Part shown: in pieces, positions 3,590 through 11,824 of the stretch
Numbering within the stretch: position 1 is the stretch's first letter
Layout: every line of letters starts with the position of its first letter
Virus record (IMG/VR): IMGVR_UViG_2654587726_000023
Strand: one strand, 5' to 3'
Length of the DNA stretch: 11,878 bases
DNA from: a virus
Lineage: Duplodnaviria > Heunggongvirae > Uroviricota > Caudoviricetes
Made by a program: the position numbers and the translations under genes
The notes under the pieces: generated by a model
The model's input: only the letters and a program-made list of their open reading frames with translations
What the model was told of the DNA's origin: nothing
Database searches by the model: none

Positions 3590-4804
3590 ATGTGGTGGCC
3601 TTTTAGTCGTAAAAAAAGCGATCTGCGTAACCTGTCCATTGATGATTTTCTGGCGTTGTCTGGTGTACCAAATACCGGATCCGGAGAATATGTTTCTGCC
3701 GGGACGGCTGAATCATTGCCTGCTGTGATGAACGCGGTTTCTGTCATCGCTGAGGCGGTGGCCACGATGCCGTGTTACCTGTATCTGGTACGCAATGATA
3801 AGGGCAGAGAGGCGCGGGAATGGCTGGACAGTCACCCGGTAGATATTCTGCTGAATGAGCAGCCTAATTCGTGCCTGACACCTTACCAGTTTAAACGCAC
3901 AATGATGCGTCACTGCCTGCTGAACGGTAACGCCTATGCGGTTATTGAGTGGGGGCGGGACGGGCAGCCAAAATCACTTCATCCTTATGCGCCGGGGTGT
4001 GTTGTACCGGAACGCACAGGCACACACAAATACCGCTATACCATCACCGAACCCTGTACAGGAACGGTGCGCACGTATTTACAGGAAGAAGTTCTGCATC
4101 TCCGCTATGCCTCGGATGATGGCTTTCTGGGGCGTTCCCCCGTCACGATTTGCCGTGAGGCGCTGGGGCTTGGCCTTGCTCAACAGCGTCACGGAGCCAG
4201 CATTATGAAAGATGGCATGATGGCGGCAGGGATTATCACGTCAGGTGAATGGCTGGACGGCGTGAAAGGTAAACAGGCATTAGACGCACTGGAACGCTAC
4301 AAGGGGGCGAAAAATGCCGGAAAAACGCCAATCCTTGAAGGGGGCATGGATTACAGGCAGCTGGGGATGAGTAACCAGGATGCGGAATGGCTGGCCTCCC
4401 GTCGCTTCTCCATTGAAGACATCGCCAGGATGTTCAACGTGTCGCCGATTTTTCTTCAGGAATACAGCAACAGCACCTACAGCAATTTCAGTGAGGCGAG
4501 CCGCGCATTTCTGACCATGACAATGCGCCCGTGGCTGGCGAACTTCGAACAGCAAATCAAGGCCGCTTTGCTGGTGACTTCTCCCGTACCTGGTACCCGT
4601 TATCTGGTTGAGTTTGATTCAGCCGATTTACTGCGCGCCACACCCACCGAACGTTATGCCACGTATGAGAAAGGGATTAAGAGCGGGATCATGAATCCGA
4701 ACGAAGCTCGCGAACGCGAGGGTATGCCGCCGCGTGAAGGTGGTGATGAGTTCAGCCAGGCATGGAAACAGACTGTGGAAATTAAAGGGAGAAAAGATGA
4801 GTGA
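3590..4804 (+). CDS. Portal protein, HK97 family
   Basis: ~404 aa from ATG 3590 (2 nt after protease stop); portal motifs …LLNGNAYAVIEW…, …HLRY…GRSPV…, …LEGGMDY…, …SRRFSIEDIARMFNVSPIFL…. Confidence 0.85.
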   Translation: MWWPFSRKKSDLRNLSIDDFLALSGVPNTGSGEYVSAGTAESLPAVMNAVSVIAEAVATMPCYLYLVRNDKGREAREWLDSHPVDILLNEQPNSCLTPYQFKRTMMRHCLLNGNAYAVIEWGRDGQPKSLHPYAPGCVVPERTGTHKYRYTITEPCTGTVRTYLQEEVLHLRYASDDGFLGRSPVTICREALGLGLAQQRHGASIMKDGMMAAGIITSGEWLDGVKGKQALDALERYKGAKNAGKTPILEGGMDYRQLGMSNQDAEWLASRRFSIEDIARMFNVSPIFLQEYSNSTYSNFSEASRAFLTMTMRPWLANFEQQIKAALLVTSPVPGTRYLVEFDSADLLRATPTERYATYEKGIKSGIMNPNEAREREGMPPREGGDEFSQAWKQTVEIKGRKDE

Positions 4805-5539: not shown

Positions 5540-5708
5540 ACAGGAGCAAACCAGGCTGATACGTGGACTGATAAGGCAGCGTGACTTATGGAAGACACAG
5601 GAGACAGGGCACAAAGCCAACAGGACAGGGCGCACAGAACGCACCACAGCGAAGCAATTAACCGACCGTGACCGCGAGGTCATGGAATGTTTTCGCAATC
5701 GCTGGTGA
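5529..5708 (+). CDS. Hypothetical small basic protein (59 aa)
   Basis: ATG 5529 overlapping end of HNH gene in another frame; Arg-rich MMTEQEQTRLIRGLIRQRDLWKTQETGHK…; no clear RBS; could be non-coding. Confidence 0.3.
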   Translation: MMTEQEQTRLIRGLIRQRDLWKTQETGHKANRTGRTERTTAKQLTDRDREVMECFRNRW

Positions 5709-5827
5709 GGCCGTCAGAGGGGGTGGGGGTGGTTTTCAGGACGAAACCGTCCCTGCCGGACACCGACCGCCTCCTCAAATTTTTGTGCACGGGAATTTTT
5801 TTGAAAATAATTGGGCGAAAAAAGAAC

Positions 5828-6184: not shown

Positions 6185-7829
6185 GTACGCAGAAGGCGTA
6201 AAAAACGGCAAAATTACGGCCTGTAAACGACTGAAACAGGCCGTTAAACGGTATTTTTCTGACCTTGAAAACCCCCTTTACACGTTCGATCCGGAGGTCG
6301 TGGAGCGGTTTATTGCCTTTTCCAGGGTGTGTCCGCACGTAAAAGGCGCAATGCGCGGTAGCCCCATTGAGCTGGAGCCGTGGCAGCAGTTCGCCTTTGC
6401 GTGCATCCTGGGCTTTAAGGTTAAGGCCACCGGACGGCGCAAATACACCAGCGCATTCATTGAAGTGCCGCGAAAAAATGCCAAATCCACGGTCGCCGCT
6501 ATCCTGGCTAACTGGTTTCTGGTTATGGAAAACGGGCAGCAGGATATTTACACCGCCGCCGTGAGTCGTGATCAGGCGCGGATCGTGTTTGATGATGCGC
6601 GTCAGATGTGCCTTTTATCCCGACCGTTACGAAAGCGGGTAAATATTCAGGCACACAAGGTGATACACCCGAAAACCAACAGCCTGTTAAAGCCACTGGC
6701 AGCAAAAGCGGCAACCATTGAAGGTACAAACCCGAGTCTTGCCATTGTGGATGAATATCACCTGCACCCTGACAACGGGGTTTATTCCGCGCTTGAACTG
6801 GGAATGGGGGCGCGTCCGGAGGGGCTGTTATTTGCCATCACCACATCGGGGAGCAACGTTGTTTCAGCCTGTAAACAACACTATGACTATTGCTGCCAGA
6901 TACTGGATGGTGAAGAGGTGAACGAATCCATGTTCGTGCTGATTTACGAGCTGGATGATGAAAGCGAGGTTGACGATCCGGCGATGTGGATAAAGGCGAA
7001 TCCCAATATCGATGTTTCCGTCGATCGTGAAAAACTGGCCTCAACCATCCAGAAAGCGCGGGGTATTCCGTCGCAGTGGGTGGAAATGCTCACCAAGCGA
7101 TTCAATATCTGGTGTCAGGGGGCTACACCGTGGATGGGTAGCGGTGCATGGGCGGAGTGCGCCGGAACGTTCGCGGAGGCGGATTTATACGGTCAGGAGT
7201 GCTACGCGGGGCTGGACTTATCATCAACCAGCGATATTTCCAGCGTGTGCTATGCCTTTCCGGTCGGTAAAAAGATTATGCTGGTTTCCCGTCACTATCT
7301 GCCGGAATTTCAGCTACAGAACCCCGCCAATAAAAACCGCGCCATCTATCGCCAGTGGGTAAAGGCGGGCTGGATACGCACAACACCGGGTGACTGCATT
7401 GATTATGACCGTATCCGTGATGACATCATGGCGGATGCAGAGAATTTCAATATCAGGCTGGTGGGCTTCGATACATGGAACGCCACGCACCTGAGGACGC
7501 AGCTACAGGGGGCAGGATTTGAGGTGGAGCCGTTCCCGCAAACATACCTTCGTTTCAGTCCGGCGGCGAAATCGTTCGAAGTTTTTGTTAACCGGAAGGT
7601 GATTGTGCATCGTGGCGATCCGGTGCTGGCCTGGTCAATGAGTAATGTTGTGATGCAGAGTGACGCAAACGCCAATATCAAGCCGAACAAGAAAAAATCA
7701 TCCAACAAGATAGACCCGAGCGTTGCGGCTCTGATGGCGTTTGGCACATTCCAGGCAGAACATGAGGAATTTGCATTTGATATAAGCGACAGCCACAAAG
7801 AGCGGCTTGCGGCGTTTGATGGGGTATGA
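6168..7829 (+). CDS. Terminase large subunit
   Basis: 553 aa; apparent TTG start at 6168 with GAGGA RBS, overlapping terS end; motifs …LEPWQQFAFACILGF…, ATPase region …EVPRKNAKSTVAAIL…, …AIVDEYH…, nuclease-domain region …GLDLSSTSD…. Confidence 0.9.
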   Translation: MTAWHEYAEGVKNGKITACKRLKQAVKRYFSDLENPLYTFDPEVVERFIAFSRVCPHVKGAMRGSPIELEPWQQFAFACILGFKVKATGRRKYTSAFIEVPRKNAKSTVAAILANWFLVMENGQQDIYTAAVSRDQARIVFDDARQMCLLSRPLRKRVNIQAHKVIHPKTNSLLKPLAAKAATIEGTNPSLAIVDEYHLHPDNGVYSALELGMGARPEGLLFAITTSGSNVVSACKQHYDYCCQILDGEEVNESMFVLIYELDDESEVDDPAMWIKANPNIDVSVDREKLASTIQKARGIPSQWVEMLTKRFNIWCQGATPWMGSGAWAECAGTFAEADLYGQECYAGLDLSSTSDISSVCYAFPVGKKIMLVSRHYLPEFQLQNPANKNRAIYRQWVKAGWIRTTPGDCIDYDRIRDDIMADAENFNIRLVGFDTWNATHLRTQLQGAGFEVEPFPQTYLRFSPAAKSFEVFVNRKVIVHRGDPVLAWSMSNVVMQSDANANIKPNKKKSSNKIDPSVAALMAFGTFQAEHEEFAFDISDSHKERLAAFDGV

Positions 7830-8119
7830 CGAGAATGAGCGAAACCGAACTACTAAAAATAATCCGTCGCGTTACCGGAATCAGCCAGGAAGCAGGCAAA
7901 CAGGAGGCCACGCAGCCGGACAGCGTGATAGCCGAAAATTACGCGCGTGTGGTGGCTGAGGTGATGCGCCGTGACGGTATCGAGCTTAACGGCGTGGATA
8001 TACGCAATATACGCACCAGAGTTCTGGAGTTGTTGTCATATCGTCGCCGCGTGGAGATGTACCAGGAGAAAGAAAAAATTACTTACCACTGGAAGAAGCC
8101 GGAGCGGTTACGACGTTAA
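7826..8119 (+). CDS. Hypothetical protein (97 aa) downstream of terL
   Basis: ATG 7826 overlaps terL stop (ATGA); alternative ATG at 7835; no recognisable family. Confidence 0.45.
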   Translation: MTRMSETELLKIIRRVTGISQEAGKQEATQPDSVIAENYARVVAEVMRRDGIELNGVDIRNIRTRVLELLSYRRRVEMYQEKEKITYHWKKPERLRR

Positions 8120-8123
8120 CTTG

Positions 8124-8170
8124 TGGTGACATACCGTGACGGAGAGTGACAACCAGTGACACACAGTGAC
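8124..8170. repeat. Five helically phased copies of GTGAC at exact 10-bp intervals (core at 8126, 8136, 8146, 8156, 8166)
   Basis: Direct reading: tgGTGACataccGTGACggagaGTGACaaccaGTGACacacaGTGAC. Confidence 0.7.
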
Positions 8171-8192
8171 AAAAAGACGGTATTTAAATAGA

Positions 8193-8222
8193 GTGGGTGT
8201 TTAATACCCCCCGTTTTTTTTC
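8193..8222 (+). terminator. Possible weak intrinsic terminator (short GC stem then T8 run)
   Basis: GGG…CCC short stem followed by GTTTTTTTT at 8212-8221; stem is weak. Confidence 0.3.
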
Positions 8223-8373
8223 GTGTGGTGCATGGTCAAAATGACCACGGAGAAGATACGCACCGAAGCAGAACAATTACCGTAGGTTAAAGCGACAGTA
8301 TTCACACCAGCAACCTGATTATCAATTTTCAGCCGTTCGGTGGCATCACTGGCCCCATTTTCCTGATGGGGTT

Positions 8374-8526
8374 GCGGGTTATTTGGGGGGGATTTGCGGG
8401 TTATTTTGAATGTCTCGCGGGTTACGCTTTGGCTAATATTCAAACGCATCATTTTTTAACTCATTGATATTAAAGAATAAAAAATACTTAGCAAGCGAAG
8501 ATAACCCGCTAACCCGCATAACCCGC
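8374..8526. repeat. Iteron array 2: 3 copies of GCGGGTTA(T/C) at 8374, 8396, 8417 (about 21-bp spacing), ~75 bp AT-rich spacer, then 3 abutting copies of (A)TAACCCGC at 8501-8526; same 9-mer as array 1
   Basis: Direct reading; same inverted-iteron-flanking-AT-core architecture as 140-262. Confidence 0.6.
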
Positions 8527-8879
8527 ACTGTTTTGTATATATATATACGAAAAATTGCATTCAGGAGGTGGGATCGAAATCCCTACAACCCATTGCTTAT
8601 GGGACTGCCCGCCCCGTCAAATTTTTACACCCGCGAAAAATACTTCAAGCTGGTGGGCATGATGCCGATATGGGGATCCCCATGTCGACATTAACGCCCC
8701 TCATGAATTGGCGTGCTTCCCCCTGGAAAGATGACCCGCCTGTATATTTCTTGTGTCTATTTGTTCCACGTTGTTTCATACAGTGCACCGAACGGTGTAG
8801 TTACTGGTGTAGTCATTTTGCGATTTTTAAAGTTATCTAAGATATTATTTGTCGCTTAAATTCAATTAGTTATGAGTAT

Positions 8880-10247
8880 TTGATTATAAATAGCGGATAT
8901 GAATATCCGGCGAAAAAAATCACCATCAACCTTGCTCCAGCCGATCTGCCAAAAGAAGGGGGACGATATGATTTGCCTATCGCTATTGCGTTACTGGCGG
9001 CCTCAGAACAGCTTACAGCCAATAAGTTAGATGAATATGAATTAGTCGGAGAACTGGCGCTTACAGGCGCTCTGCGTGGCGTTCCCGGCGCAATCTCCAG
9101 TGCAACTGAAGCTATTAAGTCGGGCAGAAAAATTATCGTCGCGAAAGATAACGAAGATGAAGTGGGGCTAATTAACGGTGAAGGATGCCTGATAGCCGAT
9201 CATCTGCAGGCTGTCTGCGCGTTTCTGGAAGGTAAGCACGCTCTCGAACACCCGAAACCAACTAATGCAGTATCCCGGGCGCTACAACATGATCTCAGTG
9301 ATGTTGTCGGTCAGGAGCAAGGAAAGCGAGGACTGGAAATTACCGCCGCTGGCGGGCACAACCTTTTACTGATTGGACCGCCGGGAACAGGTAAAACAAT
9401 GCTCGCCAGCCGTATTAATGGCCTTTTGCCAGATTTAAGCAATGAAGAGGCACTGGAGAGCGCTGCGATATTAAGTCTGGTAAATGCTGAATCAGTACAA
9501 AAACAATGGCGGCAGCGCCCGTTCCGCTCACCTCATCACAGTGCGTCGTTAACTGCGATGGTGGGCGGTGGTGCAATTCCAGGGCCAGGTGAAATTTCGC
9601 TGGCGCATAACGGCGTGCTTTTTCTTGATGAGCTACCTGAATTTGAACGGCGTACACTGGATGCCTTGCGAGAGCCGATTGAATCCGGGCAGATCCATCT
9701 TTCACGCACACGAGCAAAAATAACCTATCCAGCCCGTTTCCAGCTTGTCGCGGCAATGAATCCCAGCCCTACCGGACATTATCAGGGAAACCATAACCGC
9801 TGCACACCAGAACAGACATTACGTTATCTCAACCGGCTCTCGGGGCCCTTTCTCGACCGCTTCGATCTCTCACTGGAGATCCCATTACCGCCCCCCGGCA
9901 TTTTGAGTAAAACGGTAGTGCCGGGAGAAAACAGCACCACCGTTAAACAACGTGTAATGGCCGCCAGAGAGCGCCAATTTAAGCGGCAGAATAAACTGAA
10001 CGCCTGGCTGGATAATCCGGAAATACGCCAATTCTGCAAGCTTGAAAGCGAAGATGCGCAGTGGCTGGAAGAAACGCTGATCCATCTGGGGTTATCGATT
10101 CGTGCCTGGCAGCGGTTATTGAAAGTTGCACGAACCATTGCTGATATTGATCAGTCTGACATTATCACACGTCAGCATTTGCAGGAGGCAGTTAGCTATC
10201 GTGCGATTGACCGTTTGCTCATCCATCTGCAAAAACTACTGACATAA
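8880..10247 (+). CDS. comM: ComM (YifB) Mg-chelatase-like AAA+ competence protein, 5-prime truncated by island insertion
   Basis: 455 aa frame beginning IINSGYEYPAKKITINLAPADLPKEGGRYDLPIAIALL…, Walker A GPPGTGKT; corresponds to E. coli YifB from about residue 51 onward as I recall it; upstream in-frame sequence diverges and hits a stop at 8838-8840; only a TTG at 8880 with no RBS. Confidence 0.85.
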   Translation: MIINSGYEYPAKKITINLAPADLPKEGGRYDLPIAIALLAASEQLTANKLDEYELVGELALTGALRGVPGAISSATEAIKSGRKIIVAKDNEDEVGLINGEGCLIADHLQAVCAFLEGKHALEHPKPTNAVSRALQHDLSDVVGQEQGKRGLEITAAGGHNLLLIGPPGTGKTMLASRINGLLPDLSNEEALESAAILSLVNAESVQKQWRQRPFRSPHHSASLTAMVGGGAIPGPGEISLAHNGVLFLDELPEFERRTLDALREPIESGQIHLSRTRAKITYPARFQLVAAMNPSPTGHYQGNHNRCTPEQTLRYLNRLSGPFLDRFDLSLEIPLPPPGILSKTVVPGENSTTVKQRVMAARERQFKRQNKLNAWLDNPEIRQFCKLESEDAQWLEETLIHLGLSIRAWQRLLKVARTIADIDQSDIITRQHLQEAVSYRAIDRLLIHLQKLLT

Positions 10248-11663: not shown

Positions 11664-11739
11664 TGGCAGGGGCGGAGAGACTCGAACTCCCAACACCCGG
11701 TTTTGGAGACCGGTGCTCTACCAATTGAACTACGCCCCT
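11664..11739 (-). tRNA. trpT: tRNA-Trp (anticodon CCA)
   Basis: Reverse complement reads AGGGGCGTAGTTCAATTGGTAGAGCACCGGTCTCCAAAACCGGGTGTTGGGAGTTCGAGTCTCTCCGCCCCTGCCA, 76 nt, matching E. coli tRNA-Trp. Confidence 0.95.
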
Positions 11740-11747
11740 AATTAGGG

Positions 11748-11824
11748 TGGCGGAACGGACGGGACTCGAACCCGCGACCCCCTGCGTGACAGGCAGGTAT
11801 TCTAACCGACTGAACTACCGCTCC
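11748..11824 (-). tRNA. aspT: tRNA-Asp (anticodon GUC)
   Basis: Reverse complement reads GGAGCGGTAGTTCAGTCGGTTAGAATACCTGCCTGTCACGCAGGGGGTCGCGGGTTCGAGTCCCGTCCGTTCCGCCA, 77 nt, matching E. coli tRNA-Asp; 8 bp from trpT as in the distal end of rrnC. Confidence 0.95.

Follow-up and report, generated by a model that had tools for sequence, protein, structure and literature searches.

A second, inverted origin-like iteron unit in a capsid-forming phage-inducible chromosomal island of Escherichia coli

Iteron clusters and genes of the island

The IMG/VR virus record IMGVR_UViG_2654587726_000023 is represented here by a stretch of 11,878 bp (the window), which is Escherichia coli chromosome bearing a 15,048-bp island integrated in the yifB gene. 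Two clusters of short repeats (iterons) were found in this island. One of them follows the gene of the replication initiator (Rep), and the other, at 8374-8526, lies near the right island boundary. We consider it fairly probable that the latter cluster, together with a flank that extends as far as 8557, represents the inverted second unit in a replication-origin system of two units, which belongs to a phage-inducible chromosomal island (PICI). The island boundaries were determined by alignment with the uninterrupted K-12 yifB gene and with attL. The left att core is ATTATCAATAGCGGAT, and the attR core (ATTATAAATAGCGGAT, plus strand) marks the right boundary at 8883-8898, where yifB resumes. 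The second cluster ends 357 bp before the attR core. Thus, both clusters are parts of one island, and the concern raised with the original prediction, that one of them might belong to DNA outside it, can be set aside.

The iteron words in the window were counted and compared with 200 dinucleotide-preserving shuffles. The exact 9-mer GCGGGTTAT/ATAACCCGC was found 9 times against 0.13 expected (maximum 2 in the 200 shuffles), and its copies start at 140, 149, 201, 233, and 254 in cluster 1 and at 8374, 8396, 8501, and 8518 in cluster 2. Meanwhile, the 8-bp core GCGGGTTA occurs 12 times, with six copies at 140-262, six at 8374-8526, and none elsewhere in the window. It is confined to both clusters in 35.9 kb of L001 too, a RefSeq-annotated genome locus 99.3% identical to the window, where 1.34 copies are expected by chance. 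The original prediction had placed a second iteron cluster about 8.2 kb from the first one and had described twelve copies of one 9-mer. The cluster is present at exactly 8374-8526, and the number twelve holds for the 8-mer, whereas the exact 9-mer has only nine copies. A genome-wide count of the word had also been proposed. In 161 kb of E. coli DNA, isolated copies of GCGGGTTA had a density of about 31 per Mb, so it is an ordinary word at background frequency. The island specificity of the word itself was therefore rejected, and only the clusters are island-restricted.

Cluster 2 (unit 2) consists of three parts. Three spaced iterons on the plus strand (J1-J3, 8374-8424) start at 8374 (GCGGGTTAT), 8396 (GCGGGTTAT), and 8417 (GCGGGTTA(C)), with start-to-start spacings of 22 and 21 bp, or two helical turns. 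They are followed by an AT-rich core of 76 bp at 8425-8500 (71% A+T), which ranks second among the 60-nt stretches of the window for A+T (0.80) and within which TTGATAT and AAAAAAT..TTAGCA are kept in the class alignment. Finally, three tight iterons on the minus strand (J4-J6, 8501-8526; ATAACCCGC, TAACCCGC, and ATAACCCGC) start at 8501/8502, 8510, and 8518/8519, which gives spacings of 8-9 bp. In addition, a conserved outer flank, TGTTTTG(TA)6CGAAAAATTG, lies at 8529-8557 on the plus strand, and 16 of its 30 alignment columns are invariant.

Cluster 1 (unit 1, 140-262) begins 24 nt past the stop codon of rep. The 3' end of this gene occupies positions 1-116 on the plus strand and comprises the last 38 codons of a 707-aa DUF927 protein, with the stop codon at 114-116. 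These codons are part of the C-terminal domain. Unit 1 includes two tight forward iterons (140 and 149), a core of 43 bp (158-200, 70% A+T), and four reverse iterons (201, 212/213, 233, and 254) spaced 11, 21, and 21 bp; unit 2 lies 8,234 bp farther on. An identical layout of three plus three copies, inverted around an AT-rich core, had been proposed for both clusters. This describes cluster 2 well, but cluster 1 has a 2 + 4 layout, and cluster 2 is its mirror image. In the alignment, cluster 1 is collinear with the reverse complement of cluster 2, the tight copies coming first in cluster 1 and last in cluster 2. Furthermore, in Serratia fonticola (L015) about 40 nt of the core are common to unit 1 and the reverse-complemented unit 2. 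Because of this collinearity and the shared core, we regard unit 2 as an inverted paralogue of unit 1.

A PICI origin has been defined by an AT-rich region with two or more iterons on either side, the two sets facing opposite ways (Qiao et al. 2022, PMC9371898; Fillol-Salom et al. 2018, PMC6092414), and its position as immediately 3' of rep (PMC6092414, PMC9371898). Unit 1 fits this position and is a canonical, textbook PICI origin. Unit 2 has the PICI-origin layout, with three forward iterons, an AT-rich core, and three reverse iterons, but it does not lie immediately 3' of rep; in 18 related loci it is found about 45 bp past unit 1. By the published criteria except position, unit 2 would be a complete PICI-type origin.

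The gene order of the island was taken from the RefSeq annotation of L001. It starts with an integrase, a helix-turn-helix (HTH) regulator, an Icd-like gene, a DUF4222 gene, and the 707-aa DUF927 Rep. SSB and a ProQ/FinO protein come after Rep, and then the packaging genes, encoding major capsid, prohead protease, portal, connector, HNH endonuclease, P27-family TerS, and TerL. A terminator-like hairpin at 8195-8209 closes the packaging operon, and cluster 2 lies beyond this hairpin. At the Rfam gathering thresholds, only two chromosomal tRNA genes (11667-11824) were found in the window. The packaging module is 80% identical to that of an E. coli O157:H7 island (L003), which we take to match EcCIEDL933, the prototype capsid-forming PICI (cf-PICI). 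The island has the cf-PICI gene set, namely an integrase, an AlpA-type HTH regulator, rep, and its own capsid and packaging genes, with no tail genes. On this gene content, it is a member of the cf-PICI family (10.1101/2022.09.08.507074). The original prediction had also considered a partition site as a role for one of the clusters. This candidate was rejected, since there are no ParA/ParB (or ParM/ParR) genes among the annotated products of the island.

The second unit in related loci and its relation to Rep

Related loci were collected from three sources. The packaging module and the rep gene were searched against complete E. coli genomes, and an alignment of Rep was scanned against one genome per species and against IMG/VR viral contigs. 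For each locus, the most repeated 7-mer just past rep was taken as the iteron and was then mapped over the whole locus. The iteron classes were GCGGGTTA in E. coli, CTTGTCCC in E. coli and E. albertii, (T)GTTGTCC in IMG/VR contigs, CTTATCCC in Serratia oryzae, TTGGTTCA in Serratia and Yersinia, and GTGGGTTA in Tenebrionibacter. We found a second unit in all six classes, always with the iteron of its own unit 1 (38 loci). Two arrangements were seen. In the adjacent one (18 loci, including the O157:H7 island L003), unit 2 closely follows unit 1, and in the split one (20 loci) it lies 2.2-11.9 kb downstream, near the right end of the island. The relative orientation is constant in every locus, with the tight copies of unit 1 on the rep side and those of unit 2 on the far side. 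For instance, L006, with iteron CTTGTCCC, has the spacings of the window in both units (11/21/21 bp in unit 1, 22/21 bp and a tight triple in unit 2). Thus, the distance of about 8.2 kb is not a fixed design feature. It is one of two natural arrangements, and in the window unit 2 stands at the right end, fused to a cos-like site.

Just past the last iteron of cluster 1, at about 286-296, we noticed the sequence gcgTAACCatc, which looks like a truncated seventh, inverted iteron. In adjacent-type islands, an extra inverted iteron precedes the spaced set of unit 2 at a distance of 24 bp (7217-7229 in L003), and this copy is absent at unit 2 of the window. Because the window keeps an apparent iteron remnant after unit 1 and has none at unit 2, comparison of the sequences suggests that the adjacent and split arrangements may be related by a breakpoint at about 286-296.

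The second unit is near-universal in the E. coli islands for which enough sequence was available. Its apparent absence from L007 was an artefact of flank size. Longer sequence showed unit 2, with the same outer flank and the cos-like site, 11.9 kb away, and the view that some lineages lack unit 2 was rejected for the L007 family. Three further members of this family (L029-L031) have only 7-10 kb of downstream sequence. We also observed that Yersinia pekkanenii L012 carries three complete double origin units with iteron TTGGTTCA in 6 kb (7153-7412, 11735-11994, and 12916-13205), which suggests tandem or nested related islands, or duplications of rep and origin.

The iterons of unit 2 are much better conserved than the sequence between them. 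For the GCGGGTTA class, an alignment of 21 unique unit 2 sequences showed 42 of the 48 iteron columns to be invariant, versus 9 of the 27 columns of the inter-iteron spacers. All columns of J1-J3 are invariant, and so are those of J4-J6 save one copy in the O157 type. This near-perfect upkeep of the iterons argues for selection. It also bears on the view that unit 2 is a functionless relic of duplication or recombination, or simply part of a gene. Recombination has evidently moved such modules, as a duplication of about 120 bp around the module in L004 (described below) shows, and RefSeq has a hypothetical protein across unit 2 in L001. Nevertheless, the iterons have stayed near-perfect in six classes and four genera while the spacers diverged, and we regard a relic or a coding sequence as very improbable.

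The hypothetical protein is encoded by a minus-strand open reading frame (ORF) over the spaced iterons of cluster 2. It is WP_235777884.1, with 111 aa in L001 (window 8117-8452), whereas the corresponding ORF of the window (8201-8452) has 83 aa and overlaps the terminator-like hairpin. There was no Pfam match, the start region is not conserved, and most genomes have no gene call at this place. The protein-coding explanation was rejected on the missing Pfam match, the lack of conservation, and the hairpin overlap, and the annotation is probably a spurious gene call.

The iterons were also compared with the initiator. DUF927 is the sole Pfam match of Rep. Its solved relatives are 8tch, a staphylococcal 'pathogenicity island protein' (E = 1.8e-14), and 5dgk, the SCCmec helicase Cch, and it also matches the Rep region of SaPIpT1028. 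Rep proteins of the staphylococcal pathogenicity island (SaPI) type are self-loading hexameric helicases in which a C-terminal winged-helix domain reads the iterons (PMC9371898). We infer that the C-terminal domain is the iteron reader in the island Rep as well. The helicase core of Rep is 93-97% identical among the E. coli islands. Meanwhile, the last 110 residues are 90-94% identical within the GCGGGTTA class and 40-43% identical to those of the CTTGTCCC and TGTTGTCC classes. Iteron class appears to track the Rep C-terminal domain in these comparisons, which is a correlation only.

The presence of unit 2 would seem to depend on the replicon type. For example, L005 has a 95%-identical packaging module but a RepA-type replicon; GCGGGTTA is absent from it, and iterons of another kind follow its repA. 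The right ends of L005 and L004 are homologous, but that of L005 has no unit 2 module. Furthermore, two other PICI Rep families have only the N-terminal domain in common with the Rep of the window. Their origins show compact double layouts less than about 230 bp from rep, with tight forward and tight reverse copies at opposite ends, and no remote cluster was found in their islands. We also noted a PICI Rep family of 606/619 aa (L084-L099, e.g. L085 6513-6735), again with only the N-terminal domain in common, whose iteron CTGTTCACC contains the type-1 iteron of satellite phage P4, TGTTCACC, exactly (P4 is L100, 4314-4585 and 9310-9413). The DNA-binding domain of this family may be related to that of the P4 alpha protein.

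The cos-like sites and the outer flank of unit 2

A cohesive-end site of the phiP27/SfV type (cos-B, 8556-8660, plus strand) lies directly to the right of unit 2. Its part at 8577-8638 shares 88.9% identity with the cos region annotated in phiP27, whose 10-nt cos corresponds to about 8606-8615 (TGCCCGCCCC). In addition, 8602-8641 aligns with the very left ends of the SfV and SfIV records, and also with sequence close to the ends of SfII and ST64B. A second cos-like sequence (cos-A, 5708-5812) occupies the canonical intergenic region between the HNH gene and terS and is homologous to its counterpart in the O157 island. Thus, the island has two cos-like sites of the phiP27/HK97 type. In phiP27, SfV, SfII, SfIV, and ST64B, cos lies between HNH and terS with no iteron cluster beside it, whereas cos-B of the window adjoins unit 2. 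No match to cos-B was found in the O157 island, although EcCIEDL933, the element it matches, relies on its own terminase for packaging (10.1101/2022.09.08.507074). There is a precedent for a PICI in which two cos sites function, namely EcCICFT073 (PMC6092414).

Unit 2 and cos-B form a module at the right end of islands with packaging genes (the window, L004, and L020-25) and without them (L006, L008, and L007), and unit 2 was fused to a phiP27-type cos in the distant-type E. coli and E. albertii loci inspected. Only 30 bp separate the end of unit 2 from cos-B. This closeness, together with the upkeep of the junction in E. coli and E. albertii islands of both kinds, would fit an accessory role in packaging, in which Rep or a host protein on unit 2 aids terminase at cos-B. 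However, in the 18 adjacent-type loci, such as the O157:H7 island, unit 2 stands beside unit 1 with no cos-like sequence near, and the iterons follow the specificity of Rep and not the type of terminase. Since no cos-like sequence accompanies unit 2 in the adjacent type, packaging is not an intrinsic function of this unit, and a packaging role for it is highly unlikely. Nothing informative came from a search of Serratia L015 for a cos beside unit 2, or from a search of the O157 island for its cos in the right end.

The module was also found in a different setting in L004, an island at the gcd/hpt site. Unit 2 and cos are flanked there by a direct duplication of about 120 bp (15645-15768 and 16085-16200), with a second cos-like copy after the module at 16318-16381, and the RepA-type L005 has the duplicated sequence once and no module. 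From this comparison, the duplication would be the footprint of insertion or exchange of the module by recombination.

The outer flank is conserved beyond the class of the window. It was found after the tight iterons of unit 2 in every class and genus inspected, in the form TTTTG(T/C)(T/A)TATATA, and the homology between the window and relatives of another iteron class picks up again at this flank. It may serve as a readily melted element or as a promoter element of the -10 type. The latter leads to the explanation that unit 2 is a Rep-controlled promoter or operator, in which TTTTG(TA)n serves as the -10 and the activity is set by Rep on the adjacent tight iterons. Such a promoter would drive the downstream genes in adjacent-type islands, and in the window, once the island is circularised, it would give a transcript over cos and attP into int. 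The upkeep of the flank TGTTTTGTATATATATACGAAAAATTG in all classes and a Shine-Dalgarno-like AGGAGGTGG retained in the window at 8563-8571 are consistent with this. Nevertheless, a sigma-70 consensus scan reported no promoter here, and there is no acceptable -35 element 16-18 bp upstream. The flank is conserved in split-type islands although no gene follows it there, and the spaced iterons, the AT-rich core, and the mirror-image copy of the origin would be left unexplained. We therefore consider a promoter as the main function of unit 2 improbable.

Several other repeats were observed in this part of the island. GTGAC is repeated five times at an exact 10-bp period (8126, 8136, 8146, 8156, and 8166), just past the stop of an ORF at 7826-8119, and a different repeat, GCGGTAACTnnnTGATATT, is found at the equivalent place in relatives (15625-16020 in L003; also L004 and L005). 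The GTGAC copies may form a protein-binding array. In addition, a direct repeat of 76 nt, 78% identical between its copies, lies just inside both ends of the island (window 8744-8819, L001 5927-6002) and holds tandem TTGTTCCA(C/G) and GGTGTAGT(C/T)A motifs, which are probably arm-type binding sites of integrase or excisionase. Islands with other integrase types have their own end repeats, e.g. GTGCAGTCAGT twice at both ends of L005. Furthermore, a near-perfect palindrome, gatatggggatccccatgtcgac, lies between cos-B and the arm-type repeats (window 8662-8691), and it is conserved in the O157 island, again at the right end (16249-16284 in L003), as well as in the Shigella flexneri locus L019.

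Possible roles of the second unit

Considering the layout together with the known PICI origins and P4, unit 2 is most likely a second Rep-binding element of the origin type, either a second origin or an auxiliary site like the crr of P4. The motif counts, the position in the island, the mirror layout, the co-variation with the Rep C-terminal domain, and the selective conservation of the iterons are observed, whereas the binding of Rep to unit 2 and any role of this unit in replication are inferred. The two-site replicon of the original prediction is in keeping with several observations: both units belong to one island, both have a fixed relation to rep, their iterons change jointly with the Rep C-terminal domain, and those of unit 2 are conserved much more strongly than the spacers between them. 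After induction and excision, the Rep, a self-loading helicase of the DUF927/MCM-like type, would bind the iterons of both units through its C-terminal domain. Unit 2 might then melt and fire as a second origin. Alternatively, like crr, it might serve as a Rep-loaded auxiliary site and be brought into synapsis with unit 1 by contacts between Rep molecules.

A system of obligate half-origins, with a single fork from each unit, is not possible. If two forks set out 8 kb apart on a 15-kb circle, whether toward or away from each other, one arc of it would never be copied. Therefore, either each unit is self-sufficient or one of them acts through DNA looping or Rep-Rep bridging. A stronger form of the latter is that the origins of the enterobacterial PICI Rep family are inherently bipartite, so that in the split type the distal unit must synapse with unit 1 through looping by Rep. 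Replication might then even start at the distal unit, as it does in P4, whose ori is the distal cluster and whose crr is the one close to the initiator gene. We hold this form to be possible but rather unlikely. If it were true, the fusion of the distal unit with cos would physically couple the initiation of replication to the packaging site, and the islands would offer a natural series of separations from 45 bp to 12 kb for dissecting long-range origin activation.

The likeness to plasmid control loci suggests a role of the opposite sign. Unit 2 could be a negative control locus that titrates Rep or handcuffs unit 1 and so limits initiation, as incA of P1 and incC of F do. The same iterons are found outside the rep-proximal origin and at variable distance, as in those plasmid loci, and a Rep-mediated pairing of two iteron arrays is also required by the favoured model of a second origin-type element. 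The arrays of incA and incC are direct repeats, have no AT-rich melting core, and act negatively. In contrast, unit 2 is not a plain iteron array but keeps the full origin layout of inverted sets, AT-rich core, and (TA)n flank, and the initiator is a DUF927 helicase and not of the Rep_3 type. Furthermore, a satellite that out-replicates its helper in a lytic burst would have little obvious need of copy limitation, judging from the biology of PICIs (PMC6092414). A negative control locus is thus unlikely in our view.

Several points weigh against a second origin-type element as well. First, the two units are not equivalent. A DnaA-box-like site, TTATACACA, is present at 160-168 on the minus strand, beside the tight iterons of unit 1, and Tenebrionibacter L017 has TTATCCACT in its place. 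Meanwhile, unit 2 has the TTTTG(TA)n flank and a match to the IHF consensus in its AT-rich core (TATCAATGAGTTA, 8457-8469, minus strand), and similar IHF matches are present in L004, L006, and L009. The two units may recruit different host factors, and the differing accessory sites hint at some division of labour. Second, the split-type L006 has a single contiguous segment, bounded by conserved flanks, that holds the Rep C-terminal domain together with both units. Because one recombination could swap all three parts, their co-variation is partly linkage and not independent compensatory change. Third, a gene begins about 10-30 nt past the flank in adjacent-type islands, its ATG being provided with a Shine-Dalgarno sequence, so that a transcriptional role of unit 2 is possible. 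Fourth, unit 2 was not found in the DNA covered for 11 loci, 7 of which had less than 7 kb of downstream sequence. Among the loci without it, the Serratia-type L010 and L050 and the L007-family L030 and L031 had no unit 2 within 10 kb downstream. In addition, the IMG/VR loci include many closely related ones from E. coli, so the counts given above are of loci and not of independent events. Finally, the minimal replicon of EcCICFT073, which belongs to another Rep family and is the only Gram-negative PICI whose minimal replicon was tested, needed only rep and the rep-adjacent region (PMC6092414).

The original prediction likened the two clusters to ori and crr of P4, the subjects reportedly of Flensburg and Calendar in 1987 and of Ziegelin et al. 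in 1993. In the P4 record (NC_001609), crr (4291-4590) lies immediately 3' of the alpha gene and ori (9086-9809) lies 4.7 kb away, and both carry the type-1 repeat TGTTCACC in tight and inverted copies. The island resembles P4 as a small satellite replicon in which a single 8-mer is repeated, in tight and inverted copies, in two clusters that lie apart. One of these directly follows the initiator gene (crr in P4, unit 1 in the island), and the other is found kilobases from it. However, the P4 clusters bracket the replication operon, whereas those of the island bracket ssb and the head genes, and the need for both sites has been shown for P4, while the island is likened to it by layout alone. 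The initiators also differ. Alpha is a Zn-ribbon/Toprim/D5_N/SF3 protein (Pfam domains Zn_Ribbon_Prim, Toprim, D5_N, DUF5906, and Pox_D5), and the Rep of the window is DUF927/MCM-like. Homology between the two was rejected on a BLASTP E value of 0.069 and their different Pfam domains, and a tblastn search of Rep against 50,697 phage records gave no P4 match at E <= 1e-5. Thus, P4 is a fair functional analogy, but the island is a capsid-forming PICI whose Rep has no detectable similarity to alpha.

A second analogy is plasmid R6K. Its pi protein (Rep_3 family) has seven direct iterons to bind at gamma, but only partial sites at the alpha and beta origins, and looping mediated by this initiator has been shown, whereas for ori and crr of P4 a Rep-type bridging at a distance has been proposed. 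The gamma enhancer with its distant alpha and beta origins resembles the island in that iteron sites kilobases apart could cooperate through an initiator bridge. Unlike R6K, the island has two complete mirror-image units, and its initiator is itself the helicase.

The closest likeness in layout is to the PICI/SaPI origin, which Ubeda et al. are said to have treated for SaPIs in 2007. It shares the two opposed sets of short iterons around an AT-rich region, with the gene of a self-loading Rep helicase just upstream. The published systems have one origin after rep. In contrast, two inverted units are present here, the second of which is up to about 12 kb away, fused to cos, and extended by the conserved TTTTG(TA)n flank. 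A second origin unit is not mentioned in the text, figures aside, of the PICI and cf-PICI literature searched, which describes a single origin after rep. What appears to be new is the inverted duplication of a PICI iteron origin and, in many islands, the separation of its units by kilobases together with a junction to cos.

For the annotation of these islands, unit 2 and cos-B provide a recognisable right-end module, which is useful for placing boundaries and modules. If unit 2 is functional, a large family of enterobacterial satellites would use a duplicated or split origin. This would bear on the design of minimal replicons and synthetic PICI vectors, on the assembly of self-loading Rep helicases, and on the incompatibility of co-resident islands. 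Furthermore, the natural adjacent and split variants would make a tractable system for the old question posed by the crr of P4, namely what a distant initiator-binding site does in a small replicon.

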